Below, piece after piece: positions 7,438 to 49,839 of a stretch of 64,000 nucleotides of DNA. Source of the stretch: Candidatus Latescibacterota bacterium (GTDB taxonomy: Bacteria; Latescibacterota; UBA2968; GCA-2709665); contig CBDDDZ010000002.1 in NCBI GenBank assembly GCA_965226795.1, positions 448,001 to 512,000 on the forward strand, in the 5' to 3' direction. Numbering within the stretch: the first letter of the stretch is position 1; the number at the start of each line of letters is the position of its first letter. A program made the position numbers and the translations under genes. The notes below the pieces were generated by a model. The model worked only from the letters and a program-made list of their open reading frames with translations, made no database searches and was not told where the DNA came from.

Positions 7438-8511
7438 ATGAAGAACGGGAAATTCGGTTTCGGCATCATTGGCTGCGGCGTGATCGCGCCGACCCATCGC
7501 CTGGCCATTGACGCATGCGACGAGGCCGAACTGGTGGCGGTCTGCGACACCGACGAGAGTCAGATCGGGTCATTTCTTGCCGGCATAGATAGTGGCGCGG
7601 CCGGAATTCGTACCTATTCAGACTATAGAGAACTGGTTCAAGACGGAAACGTAGATATCGTCAGCGTCTGCACGCCCTCCGGTTTGCACCACGAAGGCGT
7701 GACCGCGGCCGCAGGGGCCGGAAAGCATGCGCTGTGCGAGAAGCCCCTCGAGATCGACGCCGGCCGCATGACCGAAATGACGAACGCATGTCGCGAAGCG
7801 GGGGTGAAACTCGGCTGCGTCTTCCAGAGCCGCACCAGTCCGGACATGATCAGAGCCCGTAAAGCCATTCAGGACGGCCTGCTGGGCCAGATGATTCTGG
7901 CCGACGCCTATCTCAAAGACTACCGTTCCCAGGCCTATTACAGGAGCGCGGGCTGGCGGGGCACCTGGACGCTGGACGGCGGCGGCGCCCTCATGAACCA
8001 GGGCGTACACGGCGTGGACCTTCTCCTCTGGCTTATGGGCAGCCCCGTCGAATCCGTATTCGGGCGCGTCGAACATAAAGTGCGCGACATCGAAGTGGAA
8101 GACACGGCCGTGGCCAATCTGAAATTCAAAAACGGCGCGTTCGGCGCGCTCATCGGCACCACCTCGTGCAACCCAGGCGAAGCCCGTCGCATCGAGATGC
8201 ACGGAGACCGCGGCACCATCACGGTAAGCGGGAGTTCGATCTCCCGCTGGGCGAACACGCTCGAAGAAGACGGACGCGCCGAAGACGGCGAGCCGCCAAG
8301 AGAAATCGAAATCCAGGGCGCGGTGGCCGATCCCAAGGCCATCGGTAGCTCTGGCCACGTCTTCCTGGTGGATGACCTCATCCGCGCTATTAAGGAAGAC
8401 CGTGACCCTTACGTGACCGGCGAATCCGCCCGGGGTGCCGTAGACCTGATTCTGGCAATCTACGAATCCGCCCGATCGGGAAGGGAAGTCGAGGTTCGCC
8501 AGGCGGGCTGA
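7438..8511 (+). CDS. Gfo/Idh/MocA family oxidoreductase
   Basis: GIIGCG, CTPSGLH, CEKP, GGGALMNQGVH. Confidence 0.92.
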   Translation: MKNGKFGFGIIGCGVIAPTHRLAIDACDEAELVAVCDTDESQIGSFLAGIDSGAAGIRTYSDYRELVQDGNVDIVSVCTPSGLHHEGVTAAAGAGKHALCEKPLEIDAGRMTEMTNACREAGVKLGCVFQSRTSPDMIRARKAIQDGLLGQMILADAYLKDYRSQAYYRSAGWRGTWTLDGGGALMNQGVHGVDLLLWLMGSPVESVFGRVEHKVRDIEVEDTAVANLKFKNGAFGALIGTTSCNPGEARRIEMHGDRGTITVSGSSISRWANTLEEDGRAEDGEPPREIEIQGAVADPKAIGSSGHVFLVDDLIRAIKEDRDPYVTGESARGAVDLILAIYESARSGREVEVRQAG

Positions 8512-8572
8512 ACCCATCCGATCCAGGCGCGGCATGCCGCGCTCCAACCCCCGAAAAGGAACCATGTACAAC

Positions 8573-9631
8573 ATGGCTGAAAATAGCAAACTCGGCTGGG
8601 GCATCATTGGCGCCGGAATGATCGCGGGTCATTTCCGGTCGGGAATCGAAGCCTGCCCAAACGCGGAACTGGTTGCCGTCTGCAATTACAACGAAGATAA
8701 GGGTAGGAAATTCGCGGCCGAGTCCGGCGGCATCAAATTTTATCAAAACCATCAGGACATGGTCGGTGATCCGGACGTGCACATCGCCGGTATCTGCACT
8801 CCCTCCGGCATGCACGCCGACAACGTTATCGCGGCCGCAAGGGCCGGCGTGCATTCCCTGTGTGAGAAACCGCTGGACGTCACGCGCGAGAAAATGAACC
8901 GGATGATCGATGCGTGCCGCGATGCCGACGTGAAACTCGGCTGCATTTTTCAAAGTCGAACCAGCGATGAAGCCATCAGAGTGCGGAACGCCATCAAAGA
9001 CGGCGATTTAGGAAAACTGGTGCTGGCCGACACCCTGATGAAGAACTACCGCTCTCAAGCGTACTATAACAGCGCCGGCTGGCGCGGCACATGGAAGGAC
9101 GACGGCGGCGGCGCGCTGATGAACCAGGGGGTGCACGGCGTGGACCTTCTGCTGTGGCTGATAGACGACGAGGTCGAATCCGTGTTCGCGCGCGCCGAGC
9201 ACAAGGTGCGCGACATCGAAGTCGAAGACACCGCGGTCGCCACCATCAAATACAAGAGCGGGGCGTTCGGAACGCTCATCGGCACCACGTCCTGCAACCC
9301 CGGCGAGGCGTCCCGGATTGAACTACATGGTGAGTCCGGAACCATCACCATGAATGGCACCCGGATCACCCGCTGGGCTACCACCACCGAGGAAGACGGC
9401 CGTGCCGTCGACGCTTTTCCTCCACGGCTAATCGCTGCCGCCGGTAACGTGGGCGCCGCCAGCGCCGTCGCGCCCGGCCACGCCTGGCTCGTGAACGACA
9501 TCACCCGCGCCGTCTTGGAAGACCGCGAACCCTATATTCCGGGCGAGTCCGCCCGAAAATCCGTGGACCTGATCCTGGCCATCTACGAATCTGCCCGGAC
9601 CGGACGGGAGATTGTAATGGACGCATGGTAG
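8573..9631 (+). CDS. Gfo/Idh/MocA family oxidoreductase (tandem paralog)
   Basis: GIIGAG, CTPSGMH, CEKP, GGGALMNQGVH; start may instead be 8564 or 8534. Confidence 0.92.
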   Translation: MAENSKLGWGIIGAGMIAGHFRSGIEACPNAELVAVCNYNEDKGRKFAAESGGIKFYQNHQDMVGDPDVHIAGICTPSGMHADNVIAAARAGVHSLCEKPLDVTREKMNRMIDACRDADVKLGCIFQSRTSDEAIRVRNAIKDGDLGKLVLADTLMKNYRSQAYYNSAGWRGTWKDDGGGALMNQGVHGVDLLLWLIDDEVESVFARAEHKVRDIEVEDTAVATIKYKSGAFGTLIGTTSCNPGEASRIELHGESGTITMNGTRITRWATTTEEDGRAVDAFPPRLIAAAGNVGAASAVAPGHAWLVNDITRAVLEDREPYIPGESARKSVDLILAIYESARTGREIVMDAW

Positions 9632-9705
9632 ACGCCGCGCCTTGAGGGCGCCGCGAACCTCGGCTCCACGGCATCGGACAAGGGGCGGAAGTCGTTACGC
9701 AAGTT

Positions 9706-9754
9706 ACAAAAGGAACAGCCGGTTGTGAGACCAGAAACCGGCTGTTCCTTTTGT
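9706..9754. terminator. Bidirectional intrinsic terminator
   Basis: ACAAAAGGAACAGCCGGTT...AACCGGCTGTTCCTTTTGT inverted repeat between convergent genes. Confidence 0.8.
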
Positions 9755-9774
9755 TTGGCTGATGTCCGGCGCGT

Positions 9775-10848
9775 TCAGGCGCCGTAACCGCCCACCGTCA
9801 CGACCTTTCCATTTTCAGCGGAGGCATAGATCGCTTCCACCACCTCCACGGCTCTCAGCCCGTCCATTCCCGTGATTCCGGGAGGTTTCCCGTCCATAAT
9901 GGCCTCCACCGTCTCGCTCAAATACACCCGGCCCGAAACACCTCCGTAACCGTCCGCCGCCTGAGAAGCGATCCGCAGCGTCGTCCGCGGTCCCGCTGCG
10001 AAATAGGGATGGTCGCTCACCACAAAGACCTCGTCAGCGGTCCCGCCCCAGGCCGGACTCCACGACGCGGTACCCAGCGTTCCTCGAAGGCCAATGAAAA
10101 GGTCTCTGCCGGCGGGATAGGCTTTCGGTGCGGAGTAACTGATATCCAGCGTCGCTATCGCGCCGTTCCTGAATTTTACAATACCGAAACTGTTATCTTC
10201 GATATCCAGTTGATGTTGCTGGTGGCTCACCATGCCGGTCGCCTGCTGAACCTCGTCCTGCAGGAACCACCGAAACAGATCGATCCAGTGTGTACCCAGA
10301 TTGTGCATCGGGCCGCCGCCCGCAACCGCCCTCAGATTCAGCCAGGGTGAAATCTCGTTTTCCAGGTAACGCAGGGGTGAGCCCGCCGCGCACCGCCCCT
10401 CGAGCGCGACAATCTGCCCCAGCATGCCGCGATCGACGAGTTCCTTGATCTTTCTTGAGGCCGGATGCGCGCGCCAGCAGTAGGGTGAAGACAGCGCCAC
10501 GCCCGCCTCTCCCGTCGCCGCGATCATGCGCCGGATGCCCTCGCACGTATCCGCCATCGGCTTCTCGACAATCACGTGCTTACCGGCCGCCGCCGCCCGT
10601 TCCACTGCCTCCGGGCACTCCGAATGCGGGAGCAGGATCACCACCAGGCCGATGTCCCCCCGCGCCAGAAGCGCGTTGTAATCGTCGTATCCATCAATCC
10701 CGGTCTGCCCGCACACCTGCTTCAGATAGACCGGATCCGCCTCGGCGACAGCCCGCACCTCCGTCTGGACGATGGCTTCAAAATGTGGAAGATAATCCAC
10801 GGAATGAAGGTGGTGGAATCCGATTATCCCAACCCCGAGCCTCTTCAT
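9775..10848 (-). CDS. Gfo/Idh/MocA family oxidoreductase
   Basis: VGIIG, VEKPMA, GGGPMHNLGTHWID. Confidence 0.9.
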   Translation of the reverse strand: MKRLGVGIIGFHHLHSVDYLPHFEAIVQTEVRAVAEADPVYLKQVCGQTGIDGYDDYNALLARGDIGLVVILLPHSECPEAVERAAAAGKHVIVEKPMADTCEGIRRMIAATGEAGVALSSPYCWRAHPASRKIKELVDRGMLGQIVALEGRCAAGSPLRYLENEISPWLNLRAVAGGGPMHNLGTHWIDLFRWFLQDEVQQATGMVSHQQHQLDIEDNSFGIVKFRNGAIATLDISYSAPKAYPAGRDLFIGLRGTLGTASWSPAWGGTADEVFVVSDHPYFAAGPRTTLRIASQAADGYGGVSGRVYLSETVEAIMDGKPPGITGMDGLRAVEVVEAIYASAENGKVVTVGGYGA

Positions 10849-40158: not shown

Positions 40159-40180
40159 GAACGAAGGGGACGCGACACCC

Positions 40181-40444
40181 CTGGCGTGGGCGGACATTCT
40201 CAACATGGAGAATTATCTGGATGTTTCTGAGGCGATTGTGAACGGCGCCCTGGTGCGAAAAGAGAGCCGGGGATCGCACTACCGCTCGGATTTTCCGGAG
40301 AGAGACGATCGTGCCTATCTCTGCGATTTCGTTGTTACAAAGGACAGGCCGACGCCCGTAAGCCGTGAGGTTGTGTTGACTCGTATGAAACCGGACTTAG
40401 ATAGGTCATTAACGACGCACGAAATTGCTAGAAGGAAAACGTGA
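40181..40444 (+). pseudogene. C-terminal fragment of SdhA/FrdA/NadB-type flavoprotein
   Basis: ALVRKESRGSHYRSDFPERDD motif with no FAD-binding N-terminal part. Confidence 0.75.
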
Positions 40445-40784: not shown

Positions 40785-41267
40785 CTAACTTATTCGATCT
40801 GCACTGAATTTAATGCGACGTAACCGCATCGTAAGAACGGTATGCCTAACTACGCTCACCTCAGATTCAATTGAAGCCAGCAGTCCTGTAATCATCTCTA
40901 GTAACTCGCCGATGAGACGAACTTCGACCTCCAAATCTCTTTTTGCCTGATTTCGAATCCTGATTCGAGAAATAGTGTAGCCCAAACCAAACATAATTAC
41001 TACTGTGAGTCCGAAAACACTGACTGTTAAACCAATGGTCGACATTTCGATATTCGCCTTTATGTATAGCAACGCGCCACCCAATATGGTCAAATAGGTA
41101 GCGGAAAAAACTGCCAGATACTGACCTCGAGAGGAGACGATAGATTGCTCAAGAGTTTCGATTCGTGCCGAAATCTCTTCTGCAAGGTCAATGAGTTCTT
41201 CTACTTCACGAAGCCTAGCTGCGGGATCAAATTTGTGTCCTTGTTGGTGTCTGCCGCTTGTGTTCAT
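40785..41267 (-). CDS. Hypothetical 2-TM protein with flanking helical/coiled-coil regions
   Basis: Two hydrophobic segments (YLAVFSATYLTILGGALLYI; IGLTVSVFGLTVVIMFGLGY); TGATG coupling to the GTPase; low GC. Confidence 0.75.
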   Translation of the reverse strand: MNTSGRHQQGHKFDPAARLREVEELIDLAEEISARIETLEQSIVSSRGQYLAVFSATYLTILGGALLYIKANIEMSTIGLTVSVFGLTVVIMFGLGYTISRIRIRNQAKRDLEVEVRLIGELLEMITGLLASIESEVSVVRHTVLTMRLRRIKFSADRIS

Positions 41268-42145
41268 CACTTCCTCTTACCATAGCATAAACTAGCTAAG
41301 TTGCACAACATGTGCTTTAACAAGGCACGAGCGGATTCATCGCCTCCGATTTCTGTATTATGCATTCTGCCATTCCACTCGAAGTTTTCCTGCCAAGAAC
41401 ACACGGGCGCCGCTGAAACTTTGAAATTCCCGCGGCCCACTTTATCAAGCATCTTGTTAAGTATGTCTGTGAATGGGCTCTCTAGCCTTGGATGGTAGTA
41501 GCGTTGTACTTCGTTGATTTCATTTACGAAGAGGTCTGCTTTATTTACAGCAATGAACATCCAATTTGGTCGTCTACAACGAGTATATGACTCCTGAATT
41601 CGGTCGCAGATTTTGGCGAAATCTTCGCGTTCCTGATTTAAATTGAACTCACGCAAATCCTTGATTGTGCTGAGTCCGTTTTTAGTTATATACTCTTCGC
41701 GAACAACCTGATCCCTTTCTCTGGTAAATCCCCAATCTACTACATAAACTACACCCTCAAGTTTATGATGAGAGCTAAATGCTTCATGTATCCCCAGATC
41801 CCGTTCCTGGATAGTGTCGCCGGGGACAATTCTGACGATTCGCGTCCATCTGCCAACTCGTAGGAGATGGCTCTCAACGTCACGGGAACGTTCGGGTTGC
41901 TCCCAAGCCCAGTCTTTATCCGCTAGCTTTATCCTTTCTACAAGAATTGACTTCCCAACACCTGATCGCCCGGTCACAACGATATTGGTTTTTCCTGAGC
42001 CGACATGATACATTAGCCAGAGCCACCCATAATGAAGCAGATGACGATGTTTGTACGCAGTCCACGGTAGTTTAATAAACCTCGGGATTAGATCGCTCCA
42101 CGCCTCATTGGCCTCGTGTAGGGCGGTTTTAGTGTCCTTCAACAA
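41267..42145 (-). CDS. TRAFAC-like P-loop GTPase domain protein
   Basis: G1 GRSGVGKS, degenerate G3 (IVPG), VVYVVD strand, G4 NKAD, G5-like CS; TTG start after GAGGG (ORF extends to 42196). Confidence 0.75.
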   Translation of the reverse strand: MLKDTKTALHEANEAWSDLIPRFIKLPWTAYKHRHLLHYGWLWLMYHVGSGKTNIVVTGRSGVGKSILVERIKLADKDWAWEQPERSRDVESHLLRVGRWTRIVRIVPGDTIQERDLGIHEAFSSHHKLEGVVYVVDWGFTRERDQVVREEYITKNGLSTIKDLREFNLNQEREDFAKICDRIQESYTRCRRPNWMFIAVNKADLFVNEINEVQRYYHPRLESPFTDILNKMLDKVGRGNFKVSAAPVCSWQENFEWNGRMHNTEIGGDESARALLKHMLCNLASLCYGKRK

Positions 42146-42492
42146 CGGTCTTCCCTCACTGTGTGTCCCGCAGTTCTTGAGAGAGCCCAAATGCATTTCT
42201 TAGAATAACTGACGGAGTCTCTCGTGTGAATATATGGTAAGACAATCCTCTATGCGAGTAATGCTGTACTTGGCGATTAATCGGCTAACAGGGATATCCA
42301 TATGCAGGCCTCTAAGAACCTATAGCAGGGGAACGGACTTCATGACATCCGTCGTCGTCGAAGGCGCGGAGAATCAGATCCAAATTGGTACGTAGGGGGC
42401 CTTGACGCAATTGATATCAGGGGGTTTTAATAAATCCACCTCACAAGACCTAATGAAAATGCCCGTAACAGGTTTGTCCCTTCATGAATTCC

Positions 42493-45321
42493 TCAGGATC
42501 CGATTTTGCCAACCTCTGCCCTCCCGTATTTCCGTAGGATATCCTTGATGTCCTCAGGGCTATAGGAAACGTCGGAAACCCACCGCCCGAAGCCCCCGTG
42601 CTGGTTGACGGCATGGGTCCACTGTTCCAATGCACGGCGCTTGGCGCGGCTCTGTTCGTCCGGCTGTCCCTTCGTCTCCAGAACCAGTAGATTCCCTGAC
42701 TTCAGACGGATGATGAAGTCAGGACGGTACTTTCGGACCACTCCCCTATAAACGTAAAGCACCTCAAATCCCAGGTGGTCGTTCTTGACCCATGCATCAA
42801 CTATGGGGTTGTGGTCTAACTCGAACGCTTCCGACGCTTCCCACGTGCTGTCGTACACGCACATGTTAATGTGGCTACGCTCAGAGACGTGGCACGGCTT
42901 GCCGGTGTACCAGGTCGCCACGTTGGCAGTCGAACGGATAGGATGGTCACGGTCAAAGACAGGCTCAAGCCTCTCCGTGTTCTCGATACGTACAGCGTCC
43001 CAAAGGTGCTGCACCACCTTTGTCATATTGAGAGTGATGATGAGCCGCCGAGCAGTGTCGTCCTGGTAGAACAGTGGTGGCGTGATATCAAGTCGATCAG
43101 TTAAGAGAAACTGCTCGACAAGCTTCACCAACTGGGCAATGAGAGACTCCCTGCTGCCCGACCAGGAAGTCTGCATCTGGTCGTAGACATCCCGTGCCGT
43201 TTCGAAGACGATTTTCTGTGTTCTGTACTCTCTCGCTAGCGCTTCCAGGTCAATGCTGGTCACCTTGGAGACGTCGGGTTTCCCGTCCACTATGGGAGCA
43301 AGTTCGGCGACCTGAGCCGTTTCGCTGGCATTGAGGTGAAGAAACTCGACTCGTCCCCAATCCAGAGAAAGGCGTGGCCGGTATACGTGCTCGATGCGAA
43401 TGACGTTGGGCCATTTGATTTCAAACGCAGCTTTTTCGGTCACCGGCTCAATGGCAGTTTTTGGACTTGGAGGTTTCGGCGCTACGCTGCCGTCTGACTC
43501 GTGAGGCAGGAAGGTGAAGGGCACCCCAAATATGTTTACGTACTCCGGCTCGAAAAGGCCGGTCTTGTCGTTCACCTCGTAAGTCGTACGGCGAAGGCCC
43601 CGGCCCACCACCTGCTCACACAGCAATTGGCTGGTGAACGCTCGGAGTCCCATAATGTGGGTAACGGTCTTGGCGTCCCAGCCCTCGGAGAGCATCCCCA
43701 CCGAGATGACGTTCTGTATCTTCTCGCCGGGCTGCCCCGGTCGCCCGACGGTATCCACCATCCTCCTGAGTTGCTCAGCCCTCTGGTCTGCGGTAAGCCT
43801 CAATGACTCAACTCCATTTCCAGATTTGTTTTTATCGTCCGCTTTGATCTGAGCTATCGGCTCCTCTGACTCCTCAGCCCGCTTGAGTACGCCGGAGTCA
43901 ATGTGCAGGGTCTGCTTCTCATTGCAGAGTTCGTCGATCAAGATACGCTTACGGTCAAAGGCGTGCTTGATTCGTGCCGCCGTCTCGGTCCGATTGGCAA
44001 CGGTGATCATCACTGGCGGTGTTTCTTGCTTTGATTTTCGCCACTCTTTGGCAGCCTCTCTCCAGTCGTAGCCAAGCAGGTAATACCCATTGGTCACCAG
44101 ATCAGGTAGTGGCTCGTGGGGCTGCGCACGCCGATTCAAGTCGTCTTTCACATCCGCGTCGTTATATATGTGGTAAAGACGGGACTTGTAGGTCCTTGCA
44201 TCGGGCACTGCATCGTCGCGTATTACTACACGGGGTGTCTTTACCAAGCCCGATTCAATGGCGTCGTTCAGTCCAAAGTCGCTCACGATCCAGTTGAAAA
44301 GGGCCTCATCTGAGCTTTTCTTGCCTGATGGTGCAAAGGGTGTGGCAGAGAAGTCGTAGCAGGTGAGAATGTTGCGCGCACGGTGAATCCGGTCTAATCC
44401 TCCCACCCACTTGGTCGCTTCCTCAATATCGGCCTTGGCGACGCCCTTGACCTTCGACTCGGCCGGAACACGCCAGGCGTGGTGCGCTTCGTCGTTGACG
44501 GCGAGCAGGTTTCGGGCTCCGGCCATCTCGCCCAGCACCTTGCGTACATAGGCCTCGTCGCTCTTGGCTCCTCGTTTGTCCACGCTACGTTTTCTGGCAA
44601 TCTGTTCATCTGTCTCCCAGTTGAGGGCATGCCAGTTGCGTACCATTACCTTTCCTTGGCGGAGTCGATCCAATAAAGGTGAGGGCACGATATGGAAAGC
44701 CTCGTAGTAGTTTTCGGGATTGGATGGTTCCAGGACCGCGAGGCGGCTTCTGACGGTGAGACCGGGGGCAACGACCAGCACATTCTTGGCAAAGCGGTTG
44801 TCCTGGGGATAGGCGACCTTGTTGAGAATGTGCCACGCGATCACCATAGCCATAACTACTGTTTTACCGGTTCCCGTCGCCATCTTGGCACATAACCGGC
44901 GGAACTCGCCGCCGTCACCGGGAATCTCTATCCCCACCTTTTCACTATCGGGCGCTTCAGTCAGCCAAATCAGCGTCGCTACGGCCTCGAGTTGGCAGAA
45001 GAAGAACCGCCGGTTCTCGAACTCTTCCGAGTCCGTCCAATGCTCCAAAAGGCGTTTGGTGATTGCTGTCACGCCAGGATAGCTGGCTTCTCGCCATGAC
45101 TTTACACGTGGCCGAATCTGATTGACCAGAGGGATTTCAACGAACACACCCGGGTCGTCGAAGGTCTTGGAGTCCGCCGACGCAATGAGGTAACCCGCAG
45201 ACCGACGACCCTCCGATCGTGAGAACGTCCGCCTCTCCCGGTTATAGCTCCAGTGCTCCGCTGGTTCAGCATAAGGCCCATTGATGATGAGCCGGTCTAT
45301 TGCGGCCTGTTCTTCAACCAT
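42493..45321 (-). CDS. res: Type III restriction-modification Res subunit (SF2 helicase + PD-(D/E)xK nuclease)
   Basis: KMATGTGKT, DEAHH, SATP, EGWD, QVVGRGLRR, YRPDF..LETKG. Confidence 0.92.
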   Translation of the reverse strand: MVEEQAAIDRLIINGPYAEPAEHWSYNRERRTFSRSEGRRSAGYLIASADSKTFDDPGVFVEIPLVNQIRPRVKSWREASYPGVTAITKRLLEHWTDSEEFENRRFFFCQLEAVATLIWLTEAPDSEKVGIEIPGDGGEFRRLCAKMATGTGKTVVMAMVIAWHILNKVAYPQDNRFAKNVLVVAPGLTVRSRLAVLEPSNPENYYEAFHIVPSPLLDRLRQGKVMVRNWHALNWETDEQIARKRSVDKRGAKSDEAYVRKVLGEMAGARNLLAVNDEAHHAWRVPAESKVKGVAKADIEEATKWVGGLDRIHRARNILTCYDFSATPFAPSGKKSSDEALFNWIVSDFGLNDAIESGLVKTPRVVIRDDAVPDARTYKSRLYHIYNDADVKDDLNRRAQPHEPLPDLVTNGYYLLGYDWREAAKEWRKSKQETPPVMITVANRTETAARIKHAFDRKRILIDELCNEKQTLHIDSGVLKRAEESEEPIAQIKADDKNKSGNGVESLRLTADQRAEQLRRMVDTVGRPGQPGEKIQNVISVGMLSEGWDAKTVTHIMGLRAFTSQLLCEQVVGRGLRRTTYEVNDKTGLFEPEYVNIFGVPFTFLPHESDGSVAPKPPSPKTAIEPVTEKAAFEIKWPNVIRIEHVYRPRLSLDWGRVEFLHLNASETAQVAELAPIVDGKPDVSKVTSIDLEALAREYRTQKIVFETARDVYDQMQTSWSGSRESLIAQLVKLVEQFLLTDRLDITPPLFYQDDTARRLIITLNMTKVVQHLWDAVRIENTERLEPVFDRDHPIRSTANVATWYTGKPCHVSERSHINMCVYDSTWEASEAFELDHNPIVDAWVKNDHLGFEVLYVYRGVVRKYRPDFIIRLKSGNLLVLETKGQPDEQSRAKRRALEQWTHAVNQHGGFGRWVSDVSYSPEDIKDILRKYGRAEVGKIGS

Positions 45322-45377: not shown

Positions 45378-45911
45378 CTAAATCCTATCGTGGGCTTCTT
45401 GTGAGGTAAGGATTTCCGCGCCTTGGGGGCGCAGTTTCTTGGAATTCCTTAATAGACGCTGACGTCTTGTGGGGTCTCCGCGTTCCCTTTCAGGACCAAT
45501 AACGATGTGGACCTCGTCATTGGAAATAAGTACCGTCCCTTGGGATAAAGCGACATAGACGAATATACAGTCAAGGGCTTCAGACTTTTCAATGATGACC
45601 TTTCGTATAGCCTTCATCAGCGTGTCAGTCCAATTGATCGTAATTCTCAAACGAGGCGCATCTCGTATCCAATAACGCAGAATGTATACCTCGTTTCGCA
45701 AGTCGTCAGTATGTCGAATTATGGGTCCGATACGATCGTTATATTCTCCTGAGATGCGTTTTCCATCATCAATTAGCAGTGCGACGCGTTGCGCCATGAG
45801 ATGTACCAACAGCGTATTTATGTGTCCATCGACGTTGATTTGTGGATTCAGCAGATGCTCGAAGATGTTGGTGTCTATGCTCAAAGCATCCCGAAACGTT
45901 GGGGTCGTCAT
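45378..45911 (-). CDS. PIN-like domain protein (putative RNase)
   Basis: PIN acidic pattern: SIDTN, SGEY, LDCIFVYVA, LISND; ATGA overlap with upstream ATPase. Confidence 0.65.
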   Translation of the reverse strand: MTTPTFRDALSIDTNIFEHLLNPQINVDGHINTLLVHLMAQRVALLIDDGKRISGEYNDRIGPIIRHTDDLRNEVYILRYWIRDAPRLRITINWTDTLMKAIRKVIIEKSEALDCIFVYVALSQGTVLISNDEVHIVIGPERERGDPTRRQRLLRNSKKLRPQGAEILTSQEAHDRI

Positions 45912-47227
45912 TTCCCTGCCCCAAGCTGCAGACCTTCTAAAATGTCTGCTCCGAAGAATTCCATTGGCAAACCGGCTTCCATCGAACCATCCTCGTTGAC
46001 GTCCAGATTCTTGACGATGGGCATGTTGTGGTTGCTATCGTCGAAGGTAAAGAAAGCCACCGATACGTCATCCGGTGAGAGCTCTCCATTGGCTATCACA
46101 CGTCGCAACCTGAGAAGCACGTTGCTACTATGGGTTTCTATAACTGAACCCACATTCCGCCGCTTCCAGAGATCGGCAAAGAAGCTACCCAGTTCCAGTT
46201 GCGCTGTGGGGTGAAGCTGAGCTTCCGGCTGCTCCACCATCAACGTAGTATAGCGAGGCATGATAACGCCTTGAACAAAGATGGGAAGGCATTGGCTGAC
46301 GCCAAATCCGTAGTCAGCGATATGTACATCCGCCTCGGTAGTAATGTTCTTCGCGAAAGCTTGACTAACGTATCCTGATAAAGCCTTGAAATTGACTTTG
46401 TCTATACCTGCCACGCTTCTAAGGTACGGCACTATGAACTCGTATGCTTCCTGGTTCTCAGATGTTATTTTATGCAGATGTGCCAAAGCAAATTCACCCA
46501 TTGTGCCCACATTATCAACAGGGGGAGGAGATACGACAGCAACTCGCTGCGGTTCAGTTCTAACTGGGAGAAGATGCCGTAGTGAATCGATTTGATGCTT
46601 TAGCGTACCAATCACTTGCAACTCTATAGCATATCGCAAGAAAGACGTCGTACGTTGTTCCATCAGTTCAATTAACTGTTCGTGTGATCCGGCGAAGTCA
46701 TCTGGACTTGGGAATGGTTCCGCCAACTCAGGGTCAGACGCATGTTGTCCAAAGACTGAATCATCTAATATCTTCGAGTCAATCCGAAGGAGGGTTTCAC
46801 CTGAGGTCTCATCGGACAAACAGAAAGATGCTTCGCCGATGCTAGCCTTTCTGCCATACGAAACGCTGGCGCTGGCCCTGTAGACGAGCCTGTTGCCGTC
46901 AAAGTCTTCAGGTAAGTCTAGATCCGTCAATAGCGTCTTGTTTGGCCGGATGTTCGTATTCTTCGCTGCTAGCTCAAACCTGAGACTCCTTTTCCTCGTC
47001 ACCGTGTTCTTCAGCGCCGAGAATACTCCCAAATTGACCTTATCGCCTTCTGCGGTGAGGAACTGAGACCTGGCGGAGTCCATCGACTGCTGCAACATAA
47101 GCAGAAACTTTATGATCGACGACTTCCCTGAACTATTGCGGCCTATGAGGACAGTAATGGGTCGGAACCGAATCTTGACTTCATCGTCGAAAACTCTAAA
47201 GTTTGAGAGCTTTAGGACTGTTAGCAT
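45908..47227 (-). CDS. ABC-type (AAA_15/AAA_21-like) ATPase with DUF3696-like C-terminus
   Basis: LSNFRVF, Walker A GRNSSGKS, signature variant GFGVSQ, Walker B/D-loop MVEQPEAQLHP, H-loop IETHS; ATG 47227 after GAGGGA. Confidence 0.88.
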   Translation of the reverse strand: MLTVLKLSNFRVFDDEVKIRFRPITVLIGRNSSGKSSIIKFLLMLQQSMDSARSQFLTAEGDKVNLGVFSALKNTVTRKRSLRFELAAKNTNIRPNKTLLTDLDLPEDFDGNRLVYRASASVSYGRKASIGEASFCLSDETSGETLLRIDSKILDDSVFGQHASDPELAEPFPSPDDFAGSHEQLIELMEQRTTSFLRYAIELQVIGTLKHQIDSLRHLLPVRTEPQRVAVVSPPPVDNVGTMGEFALAHLHKITSENQEAYEFIVPYLRSVAGIDKVNFKALSGYVSQAFAKNITTEADVHIADYGFGVSQCLPIFVQGVIMPRYTTLMVEQPEAQLHPTAQLELGSFFADLWKRRNVGSVIETHSSNVLLRLRRVIANGELSPDDVSVAFFTFDDSNHNMPIVKNLDVNEDGSMEAGLPMEFFGADILEGLQLGAGK

Positions 47228-47238
47228 TACTATTTCCC

Positions 47239-49839
47239 TCAGACTGATATGATGCGAAGGCTCTCGATGCCTCGGTCGTCGACTATTTTGACGGCGATGC
47301 GCTGGTTGTCTCCCAGTTCGAAGGGCAGAGAGACCGTTCCACGGTACGCTACGATTAGATCTCGGTCTATCTCCGCCTTGAGATTCTTCGCAAGGCGCGC
47401 CCACCCGTCGTTCTGGCCGCCCATTGGGAAGAACACTTGACGAGGAAACAAGCTACGGCCGTCATAGTCCGAGTCCAGCATCCACATCGCGATTTTATCT
47501 TCTCCGCCCGATTCTACGTCGCCAGTCTTAGTATTGTAATAGTCGAATCCCTGTACTGCTATTTGCCACATCCCAGTGTTCTGACCCTTGCCAATTTGAT
47601 GCACGAAGACGTCCGGCTGCCCGATGAGCCAGAAGCTCTCATTGCTGACCCGTTTGCGCTTCAGATCCCCAGTCAGCAGGTCGGCATTCATCTGCGCCTT
47701 CAGCAGGGCGATGCCCGGCCATTTGGTCTCGTCGATATCCTTGGCCGCTTCGGGGTCGAATTGGAAGGCGGCGAAGACGATGACCCTGGGGCTCGGCCTA
47801 AGCGTTTCGGCTTCCTGGAGGGCATGGTTCACCTGCCGTTGCTCCAATGGCGCGTGATCGGGTCCGAAAGACACGACAATACGCTGGGCTGCTTGCGCCG
47901 AACCTTCCCGTACCGTGTCAGCGCCGTCCTTGTTGGGCAGGCTCTCGCCGTCCGCGTGAAGGTAGCGATAGCCCGGCAAGGGTTCCAAACGTGCAAAGCG
48001 GATGAACTGCCTCGCCTTGCCCCGGATCCCCGTCCTCAAAAGCTCGTCCCGCCAGTCCGCCTGGCGCAGCGTTTCGCCGGAGCGGGCCACCGTGTCATCG
48101 GCGGGCAGAGGCTCGGCGTCGTCAACGTCGTCGATGGGCTTCACCGCCGGGGCAGGCACGGCCTCGACGCTGAAGGGGCCGGTGACCCGCTTCTTGCCGG
48201 TATCCACCGATGGCTGGTCACACAGCGTCTCCTGGGGGGCGTGTCGGGCTATGGCCGCGTCGATCTCGGCTTGGCTCAGGCCTTCCTTGATTTCCGGGTT
48301 GTTGGCGATAGAGCCCAGAGTAATGTGTGGTACGGTCTTGTAGTTGAAGCCGCTGCCCACCCCCTCGGTAGGATGCGCTAGCTTGTAGTAGTTGAAGAAG
48401 GCGGTCATCAGCCGCTGCTTGGCAAGAGCTACGGCCACGCGGGAGGTGTCGCAGGTGATCCACCGGCGCCCCCACTGCTCGGCGACGTAGGCGGTGGTGC
48501 CGGAGCCGCAGGTCGGGTCGAACACCAGGTCACCGGGGTCGGTGGTCATAAGGAGGCACCGCTCAATGACTTTAGATGAAGTCTGTACCGCAAAGGTCTT
48601 ACCGATAGCCCCTTGGGTGTCCGTCCATTGATTGGTGATCTGCATTACGGGATAATCGTCAGCAAAGAAAACATACCCCGGCACGTGCGTTAGCCAACGG
48701 ACACGTCTAGCTGCGAGTAGGCGCTCCATTCCCTGTGGCGTCGTCTTCCAACTTGTCGCCGGATTGGGATATGCCCGCCGCCCGTCCAAATAGAATTCGA
48801 AATGGCACGATTCAGTGTATCCAGTCGCCATTAAGTCTGTGAGTCTGAAATAACGAACAGAGTCGTTCTCGGATTCGGAAACTTCGGACGCTTTTACCAC
48901 GCGACCGTCTTTCAAGAGTGCGTTAGAAAACTGCGTATTCTCTCCGTAATCTCGGGCGCTGAATAGTCGTCGAAACTTCACCTTTCCTTTGTTTTTTGCG
49001 TACCAGACCAGGGAATCAGCTATGTTGGGCAAGTATGCGGCGTTTAGGGGAATTTTCGTCCTAAATGAAATTTGGGACATAAATTGCCCAGGGCCAAATA
49101 GCTCATCCATAAGTGCCCGAACAAGATGAACATTCTCATCTCCTATCTGCACAAACACACTTCCGCTCTCGGTCAGCAACTCCCGGGCCAGCAGCAGGCG
49201 GTCCCGCAGGTAGGACAGGTAAGAGTGGATGCCCAGTTCCCAGGTGTCTCGGAAGGCCTTGATGGTCTCCGGCTCCTGGGTCAGGTCTTCATCCCGGCCA
49301 TCTCGAACGTTGCGCCGGTTGACGAAGGGCTGGAAGTTGGAGCCGTACCGGATGCCGTAGGGCGGGTCGATGTAGACCATCTGCACCTTGCCCGCCATGC
49401 CCTCTTTTTCCAGAAGGCTGTTCATCACCAGCAGGCTGTCGCCAGCCACCAGGCGGTTGGTCCAGTTGTGGCGGTGCTGGTAGAACTCGATGGCGCTGCG
49501 GACCGGCGGGTTCTCTTCCGGCAGTTCGAACAGACTGCCCTGTACGGGGCCACAATTGTCGTCTTGCTTGCGGGCGGCCTCGATAATGGTGCGGGGGTCG
49601 ATGCGTTCGTGAACGTGGAGCGACACCGTGGGCACCGCGAAGGAGGTGTGCTCGGCCTTCCCCGACCACTGCAGCTGCGGGTCCAGGTGAGGGTCATAGG
49701 CATAGGTCTTCCGCCCCGTCTCCGAATCGGTCTCAGGCGTAACCAAGCCGACAGGCGGGTTGTTCAGCCGCTCCTTGTCCCGGTGGTCATAGGACTCAAT
49801 AGGGCGTTTGGATCGGCGCGTGCGTCGTCGTGCAATCAT
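47239..49839 (-). CDS. mod: Type III restriction-modification Mod subunit (N6-adenine DNA methyltransferase)
   Basis: YIDPPY (motif IV), variable TRD, FDPTCGSGTT (motif I), C-terminal VKIVDDRGIE. Confidence 0.93.
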   Translation of the reverse strand: MIARRRTRRSKRPIESYDHRDKERLNNPPVGLVTPETDSETGRKTYAYDPHLDPQLQWSGKAEHTSFAVPTVSLHVHERIDPRTIIEAARKQDDNCGPVQGSLFELPEENPPVRSAIEFYQHRHNWTNRLVAGDSLLVMNSLLEKEGMAGKVQMVYIDPPYGIRYGSNFQPFVNRRNVRDGRDEDLTQEPETIKAFRDTWELGIHSYLSYLRDRLLLARELLTESGSVFVQIGDENVHLVRALMDELFGPGQFMSQISFRTKIPLNAAYLPNIADSLVWYAKNKGKVKFRRLFSARDYGENTQFSNALLKDGRVVKASEVSESENDSVRYFRLTDLMATGYTESCHFEFYLDGRRAYPNPATSWKTTPQGMERLLAARRVRWLTHVPGYVFFADDYPVMQITNQWTDTQGAIGKTFAVQTSSKVIERCLLMTTDPGDLVFDPTCGSGTTAYVAEQWGRRWITCDTSRVAVALAKQRLMTAFFNYYKLAHPTEGVGSGFNYKTVPHITLGSIANNPEIKEGLSQAEIDAAIARHAPQETLCDQPSVDTGKKRVTGPFSVEAVPAPAVKPIDDVDDAEPLPADDTVARSGETLRQADWRDELLRTGIRGKARQFIRFARLEPLPGYRYLHADGESLPNKDGADTVREGSAQAAQRIVVSFGPDHAPLEQRQVNHALQEAETLRPSPRVIVFAAFQFDPEAAKDIDETKWPGIALLKAQMNADLLTGDLKRKRVSNESFWLIGQPDVFVHQIGKGQNTGMWQIAVQGFDYYNTKTGDVESGGEDKIAMWMLDSDYDGRSLFPRQVFFPMGGQNDGWARLAKNLKAEIDRDLIVAYRGTVSLPFELGDNQRIAVKIVDDRGIESLRIISV

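Follow-up and report, generated by a model that had tools for sequence, protein, structure and literature searches.

We describe a pair of adjacent genes in a 64,000-nucleotide stretch of the genome of a Candidatus Latescibacterota bacterium (GenBank assembly GCA_965226795.1, contig CBDDDZ010000002.1, positions 448,001 to 512,000 of the forward strand; this whole stretch is called the window hereafter), which encode a small guanosine triphosphatase (GTPase) and a protein with two predicted transmembrane (TM) helices, referred to as the partner. The two genes form a conserved, translationally coupled and horizontally acquired two-gene unit, and the reading that we favour, at a probability of roughly 45%, is that they constitute a new phage-defence module, acting by abortive infection or by exclusion, with the GTPase as the switch and the partner as its membrane component. 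This reading is preferred on account of the unit character of the pair, its foreign guanine-plus-cytosine (GC) content, its rarity, the mobile or defence-related surroundings in 8 of the 16 genomic contexts compared, the invariance of the G1 and G4 motifs of the GTPase and the decay of the GTPase gene in some loci.

Coupling of the two genes can be read directly from the junction, AAG AGG AAG TGA TG, in which the TGA stop of the GTPase gene and the ATG of the partner gene overlap by one base at 41267, in agreement with an earlier note on the window that had described the genes as coupled by TGATG; were the GTG at 41270 used instead, the overlap would be four bases. The TTG at 42145 was chosen as the start of the GTPase in view of the GAGGGA box upstream of it (42157-42152, 6-nt spacer), the aligned start of the closest homologue and the disorder of residues 1–30 in the structural model (predicted local distance difference test, pLDDT, about 52–54); residue numbers of the GTPase given below are those of the 309-residue frame. 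With regard to composition, the pair has a GC fraction of 0.453 as against 0.586 for the window, 0.56–0.59 for the neighbouring Type III restriction-modification (R-M) genes res and mod and 0.59–0.62 for the flanks, and the 60 nucleotides at 41521-41580 contain 23 G+C, so that the foreign composition claimed earlier is upheld.

Of 30 assessable loci, drawn from several phyla, 27 encode a recognisable partner immediately after the GTPase, a recurrence which indicates that the gene pair is not due to chance and which bears out the co-occurrence of the two genes that the earlier note had put forward as a check. The 27 comprise 23 loci from scans of one-genome-per-species and metagenome contigs, together with the window, a Hymenobacter plasmid (L027), a prophage (L036) and a Saprospiraceae-type locus (L031). 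The scans gave 25 loci, from which L025 (a spurious 27-residue match) and L010 (ending 75 nt after the GTPase) were left out, a scan locus being assessable when at least 400 nt of sequence followed the GTPase. In all 23 of the assessable scan loci the start of a partner homologue lies no more than a few bases from the GTPase stop, two TM helices being predicted in 22 of these partners (L004 is the exception), and the gap between the two genes ranges from -17 to +21 nt with a median of 2.5 (22 pairs: 21 other loci and the window). The partners in L027, L036 and L031 match a profile made from the partner alignment at E-values of 5e-28 to 6e-34. The independent observations number slightly fewer than 27, since L017 nearly duplicates L018, and L009 nearly duplicates L012.

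The three exceptions without a recognisable partner are the most distant GTPases, at 29–31% identity. One is a Georgenia plasmid copy that leaves no room for a partner; another, from Streptomyces, is followed by an overlapping open reading frame (ORF) of like layout that hmmsearch with the partner profile did not detect and that was counted as a similar layout only. The third, in a lambdoid-type prophage from IMG/VR (L035, 3821-4618), is a GTPase of 31% identity with a hydrophobic N-terminal segment of its own; downstream of it, an open stretch of 79 codons contains two hydrophobic runs and reaches 10.8 bits with the partner profile.

Four loci have an intact partner ORF beside an interrupted GTPase frame, the lesion being an in-frame stop in L007 and frameshifts at differing places in L009, L012 and L031; L009 and L012 are 97.5% identical yet broken at different sites. 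If the breaks are real, the partner alone is tolerated, and decay of the GTPase fits costly accessory systems, where such decay is common. Prediction of a complex of the two proteins gave a score of 0.00 in both runs, which were made without controls and therefore count neither for nor against binding.

The distribution of the GTPase is sparse. It occurs in 1 of 41 relatives of the source genome, a set that includes 14 of the same genus and in which the source genome itself is the sole carrier; in 3 of 151 genomes of the Saprospiraceae-type family to which genome G041 belongs; in 1 of 67 Photobacterium species, the genus of G042; and in at least 1 of 400 genomes of Gammaproteobacteria, the class of G042, a floor value as few candidates per genome were scored. 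Its hosts belong to Bacteroidota, Gammaproteobacteria, Magnetococcales and the lineage of the source genome, the named ones including Saprospiraceae, Chitinophagales, Runella, Hymenobacter, Photobacterium and Magnetococcales. Such a distribution is typical of an accessory module that is rare and spreads horizontally. The pair carried by the L036 prophage found no match in a megablast search of 5,426 complete Escherichia coli genomes.

The comparison of genomic contexts covered 16 independent loci in which the pair is recognisable and the flank measures 3 kb or more. Of these loci, 8 are mobile or defence-related, 2 ambiguous and 6 housekeeping only; these counts have no background rate beside them and cover a small share of the 376 representatives of the GTPase family. 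The first group consists of the window, with its Type III R-M genes and an NsnB-like ATPase, and seven other loci. In L016 an integrase, AlpA and resolvase genes accompany a KAP NTPase directly upstream of the pair (PDC-S20, 4.8e-90); L008 has a transposase, a PDC-S01 match (8.1e-109) and a helix-turn-helix plus SNase gene pair; and L024 lies downstream of smpB, directly after a D5-type primase, and is followed by a gene with a CdiA-CT-type RNase domain. The Photobacterium pair (L006) is placed between two sets of filamentous-prophage genes, the Hymenobacter plasmid pair (L027) among three transposase genes and a DUF262 gene, and the Runella pair (L004) about 7 kb from GmrSD_C and PDC-S09 genes. 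In the IMG/VR lambdoid prophage L036 the pair (7857-9222) is on the opposite strand, between a Q-like antiterminator and methylase, holin, endolysin-like and spanin genes, a site between the Q antiterminator and the methylase and holin genes that we take to be the classical moron position. Just after the pair of L006, and convergent with it, a 251-residue protein is encoded (9508-10263) with a weak TIR_2 match of 26.1 bits against a cutoff of 28.

The GTPase carries G1 (GRSGVGKS, residues 76–83), a switch-I Ser at 104, G4 (NKAD, 218–221) and a G5-like CSW (266–268), and its G3-like motif, IVPGD at 123–127, is without Asp at the DxxG position. The description of these motifs in the earlier note thus holds, as does that of an aromatic-rich N-terminal segment, residues 31–66 containing 8 Phe, Trp or Tyr and 4 His in 36 residues. 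The absence of the Walker-B Asp is common to the whole family, in which the G3 consensus is VxPGQ and Val or Ile takes its place. In an alignment of 119 family sequences, G76, G81 and K82 of G1, G156, D221 of G4 and Y234 are invariant, and P101, S104, E108, P125, G126, K219 and others nearly invariant. The family's Gln is replaced by Asp (PGD versus PGQ) at codon 127 (41816-41818) of the window copy and in P0009, its closest relative (70% identity); Ras, Arf and G-alpha proteins have their catalytic Gln at this position.

A phmmer search over 1.84 billion cluster representatives (50% clustering) returned 376 proteins at E<=1e-3, 253 at E<=1e-10 and 69 at E<=1e-30, nearly all of 265–295 residues, and for this GTPase family Pfam, NCBIfam, PHROGs and PADLOC contain no dedicated model. 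The window GTPase scores 21.3 bits with Pfam MMR_HSR1 (PF01926), below the gathering cutoff of 21.9, its other Pfam matches being limited to the P-loop; the homologues score from 21.3 to 29.8 bits, L001–L004 passing (26.6–29.8) and L006 falling below (21.3), so that the family is borderline for this generic G-domain model. In PADLOC-DB 2.0 the best match of the GTPase is mad3 at E 0.059, again confined to the P-loop, and the partner has none at E<=0.1; homologues from nine other loci (both genes of L001–L004, L006, L008, L016 and L024, the partner only of L005) likewise gave none at E<=1e-6. No NCBIfam or PHROGs model matches either protein. The pair was found undescribed in the full-text literature searched, the scope of which leaves subscription journals and supplements aside, so that an entry in a large list of candidates is possible. 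The earlier statement that the pair cannot be assigned to a named system is consistent with all of these results.

The AlphaFold (AF2) model of the GTPase (pLDDT 90.4, predicted template modelling score 0.84) places two helices (39–49 and 51–65) ahead of the G domain and adds long extra helices at 163–207 and 241–253. By comparison of this model with known structures the predicted fold is nearest to Arl2, SR-beta, Rag, Arf, Sar1 and G-alpha, a placement that rests on a predicted model and in which Rab/Ras and EngB stand only 2–3.5 Z units below the Arf/SR-beta group. The two helices preceding the G domain are aromatic-basic and, in the model, occupy the position of the N-terminal helix of Arf/Arl proteins. 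On the other hand, the GTPase has no match to Pfam Arf (PF00025) or SRPRB (PF09439) at E<=0.1, and it differs from these proteins in having IVPGD (VxPGQ in the family) in place of DxxGQ with a Walker-B Asp, and in its long extra helices, bacterial host, mobile gene and coupled two-TM partner. Matches of a profile search against the PDB were confined to the surroundings of the P-loop, in Der/EngA and, less strongly, in Sar1; among the look-alike clusters in the ESM Atlas, SRPRB was found in 17% and Arf in 34–80% of members, which serves as a lead only; and in BFVD the sole matches to the model were giant-virus small GTPases, with no phage protein. The protein is therefore best described as a divergent TRAFAC small GTPase with a predicted fold nearest the Arf/SR-beta group, and it is not called a member of that group because its profile matches and its G3 motif do not conform to it.

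In the partner, hydrophobic segments at about 51–70 and 74–103 follow an acidic N-terminal helix and precede the basic stretch SRIRIRNQAKR, matching the two TM helices between charged helices described before. Only three relatives were obtained by a word-index search with the partner itself, and the others were taken from the DNA downstream of GTPase homologues. Alignment of 21 partners reveals a conserved N-terminal helix (consensus ELExLIxLAExVS) and conserved C-terminal helices (E116, LxxLLxMI, MRLxRIxF), with Glu116 and Arg152 invariant; conservation resides in these cytoplasmic helices and not in the sequences of the TM helices. The AF2 model (pLDDT 84.7; helices 16–75, 78–134 and 140–160) predicts a long helical hairpin with a third helix, that is, a cytoplasmic three-helix bundle from which two long helices would cross the membrane and join in a short outer loop, and the basic stretch after the second TM helix fits a topology with both termini inside. 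Fold searches with this model gave generic coiled coils only, and Pfam has no family for the partner. In the Runella metagenome-assembled genome (L004, 3005-3349) the partner is a 114-residue protein that has kept the N- and C-terminal helices and lost both TM helices, next to an intact GTPase.

Several known systems resemble the pair in one respect or another. A prokaryotic Ras-superfamily GTPase with a G3 motif lacking Asp (TxxGQ) is familiar from MglA, and MglA, too, has a dedicated partner encoded adjacent to it; MglB is a Roadblock/longin protein, unlike the two-TM helical partner seen here, and no sequence match of the GTPase to MglA families was seen in Pfam or NCBIfam. Lambda RexA/RexB and the CBASS and Pycsar systems with TM effectors combine a soluble nucleotide-binding or sensing protein with a small membrane protein. 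Their layout is that of our pair, and in L036 the resemblance extends to being carried by a lambdoid prophage and expressed independently of its lytic operons. No sequence or profile similarity was found, and the pair has a GTPase switch and a two-TM partner with a conserved cytoplasmic bundle. In the DO-GTPase/GAP1 conflict systems a TRAFAC GTPase is proposed as the switch, many of these systems have TM components, sometimes a two-TM pore-type effector of the SLATT group, and their definition includes a Walker-B Glu, the mark of the DO-GTPase family, as well as a GAP1 protein encoded next to the GTPase (Kaur, Burroughs, Iyer & Aravind, eLife 2020, PMC7159879). DO-GTPase clusters of the ESM Atlas appear, at 0.87–0.88, among the weaker look-alikes of the GTPase. 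The GTPase, however, has no PF19975 or PF19993 match and carries Val or Ile, not Glu, at the Walker-B position, and the pair comes without GAP1, a second GTPase or variable effector genes and with one fixed two-TM partner; none of the features that define the DO-GTPase/GAP1 systems is shared by the pair. No SLATT family was seen among the Pfam matches of the partner at E<=0.1, a result with which distant kinship would be compatible. Eleos (dynamin-like LeoA/LeoBC) is described as a GTPase-based defence that needs its P-loop and is thought to act at membranes (Millman et al., 10.1101/2022.05.11.491447); as portrayed there it relies on large dynamin-family GTPases without a separate two-TM partner, and the pair has no PADLOC match to it.

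A number of observations weigh against a role in phage defence. Six of the contexts (L002, L003, L005, L011, L014 and L017/L018) have housekeeping neighbours only, and two more are ambiguous, with a Pif1-like helicase in L001 and a UvrD-type helicase in L013. Three of the six (L003, L011 and L014, all Saprospiraceae-type) are found at the same syntenic position behind an amine-oxidase gene, suggestive of vertical inheritance, and the defence-neighbourhood signal as a whole is moderate. A tblastn search with the GTPase among 50,697 deposited phage genomes returned no match. GTP hydrolysis by the window copy may, judging from its PGD motif, be inefficient or of another kind; possession of two TM helices does not prove a pore, and those of the partner could be just an anchor, the L004 partner having lost them and kept its cytoplasmic helices; and some of the broken GTPase genes may be metagenome assembly errors.

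Part of this evidence would also suit an accessory membrane switch unconnected with defence, in which the GTPase is recruited to a dedicated membrane receptor and regulates an envelope, secretion or stress process of some strains, an explanation that we hold to be possible and somewhat doubtful. Recruitment of this kind is known for Sar1, which binds a membrane-bound exchange factor, and for SR-beta, which binds SR-alpha, and the predicted fold of the GTPase is nearest to such membrane-recruited switch GTPases. A receptor or an anchor would be expected to be conserved in its cytoplasmic part only, as the partner is, the partner of L004 without TM helices is tolerated, several of the six housekeeping contexts lie by envelope or polysaccharide genes (SLT, glycosyltransferases, PMT), and the three related loci mentioned above are syntenic. 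A strain-level regulator of this sort is harder to reconcile with the extremely low and patchy prevalence of the GTPase (1/41, 3/151 and 1/67), with the foreign composition of the pair, with its presence at a prophage moron site, on a plasmid, in an integrase island and in a primase element, and with the lack of any conserved third gene that would indicate a pathway.

The tight overlap of a mobile two-gene unit with a small membrane protein, its occurrence on plasmids, prophages and islands and the loss of the partner's TM helices in one locus also invite comparison with toxin–antitoxin-like addiction modules, the small membrane protein being the toxin and the GTPase its regulator or antitoxin, which together would retain the mobile element. 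We regard this as improbable. The state of the four loci with a broken GTPase and an intact partner, metagenome assemblies as they are, would be lethal if the GTPase were an antitoxin; no DNA-binding domain of antitoxin type was found with Pfam; and we know of no toxin–antitoxin layout in which a 292-residue GTPase comes first and a 160-residue membrane protein second.

That the pair serves the adjacent Type III R-M system as accessory subunits or as regulators, as its position on the res strand at a distance of 347 bp (about 350 bp in the earlier note) might suggest, is most improbable and largely refuted by the GC values given above and by the 15 contexts other than the window, in none of which a ResIII or N6_N4_Mtase gene adjoins the pair, which is thus independent of the R-M system. 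The proposal of a candidate anti-phage system beside an R-M system accordingly stands in part: mobile or defence-related surroundings recur in half of the contexts and close relatives lack the GTPase, whereas housekeeping surroundings occur in 6 of the 16 and the R-M association is local to the window.

Returning to the defence module that we favour, its working might be envisaged as follows. At rest the GTPase would be soluble or loosely membrane-bound, and a cue arising from infection would alter its nucleotide state, upon which it would dock on the conserved cytoplasmic bundle of the partner with its invariant Glu116 and Arg152. Docking could cause the partner to oligomerise or to open, and the outcome would be either depolarisation of the membrane, and hence abortive infection, or a block of phage DNA entry or of assembly at the membrane, and hence exclusion. 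The sensing and the harming role might each be attributed to either protein of the pair. Guanine-nucleotide exchange factors and GTPase-activating proteins use catalytic fingers at the nucleotide site, and by analogy Glu116 and Arg152 of the partner could act on the nucleotide site of the GTPase in the same manner. A more specific and unlikely version of this reading is a mobile immune module in which an Arf/SR-beta-type GTPase is served by its own two-TM receptor, and GTP-dependent docking on the cytoplasmic bundle opens or clusters the hairpin and aborts the infection.

The features of the pair and of its neighbours are collected in Table 1. The pair belongs to a low-GC mosaic island reaching from about 40450 to about 50200, with rfbB/rfbC and a flavoprotein fragment on one side and uvrA on the other. 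Between mod and res lie an AAA_15 ATPase, which has PADLOC matches to NsnB (1.4e-50), PDC-M55A (1.5e-42) and HEC-03B (1.6e-39) and whose start is likely near 47230 because the profile matches begin at residue 60, and an orphan gene; the two have GC fractions of 0.47–0.50, below those of res and mod, and give the impression of another candidate system that has been inserted into the R-M operon. The unequal GC among the blocks of the island suggests separate acquisitions. No meaningful direct or inverted repeats were found at the borders of the island. The spacer between res and the GTPase gene presumably holds the pair's own promoter; a scan for promoters and terminators counted 4 promoter-like sites where shuffled sequence would give 3.6, which is the level of chance. 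Directly after rfbC, at 40160-40444 on the forward strand, is the C-terminal part of a flavoprotein of the fumarate-reductase/succinate-dehydrogenase type (Succ_DH_flav_C, 2.7e-17), the N-terminal part being absent, and this is probably a gene remnant at the edge of the island.

Table 1 Coordinates of the two-gene unit and of neighbouring features in the window
Feature	Position	Strand	Description
GTPase gene	41267..42145	-	292 amino acids (aa) from TTG at 42145
GTPase open frame, longest	41267-42196	-	309 aa from the first ATG (42196)
Partner gene	40785..41267	-	160 aa from ATG at 41267
Partner ORF, longer alternative	40785-41270	-	161 aa if GTG at 41270 is used
Coupling junction	41265..41278	-	AAGAGGAAG; Shine-Dalgarno-like run inside the 3' end of the GTPase gene, TGA stop overlapping the partner ATG (TGATG)
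Spacer from res stop to GTPase start	42146..42492	-	347 bp, GC about 0.47
res, Type III restriction subunit	42493..45321	-	Neighbour outside the unit; 942 aa; Pfam ResIII 5.2e-08, PADLOC REase_III 3.6e-09
Orphan, no family	45378-45911	-	Neighbour outside the unit, between mod and res; 177 aa
AAA_15 ATPase (ORF)	45908-47404	-	Neighbour outside the unit, between mod and res; Pfam AAA_15 4.2e-22
mod, Type III methyltransferase	47239..49839	-	Neighbour outside the unit; 866 aa; Pfam N6_N4_Mtase 3.2e-30, PADLOC MTase_III 1.9e-155

Overall, the design of an NTPase with a small membrane protein is already known in phage defence, and this particular pair of proteins appears to be new. Should the pair protect against phages, it would be a compact two-gene system with a small Ras-superfamily GTPase at its core, a class of GTPase that bacterial immunity has so far represented mainly by large dynamin-like and DO-type GTPases. 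If the more specific mechanism with an Arf/SR-beta-type GTPase and its own receptor were true, it would amount to a new class of defence system and to a bacterial case of a small GTPase recruited to a dedicated membrane partner, a logic otherwise known from the Arf, Sar and SR-beta proteins of eukaryotes and Asgard archaea. Its small size (about 1.36 kb), its self-contained nature and its presence in several phyla make the pair readily accessible to testing. Irrespective of function, it provides a bacterial switch of Arf/SR-beta-like type together with its matching, dedicated membrane partner for the study of the coupling between GTPases and membranes.

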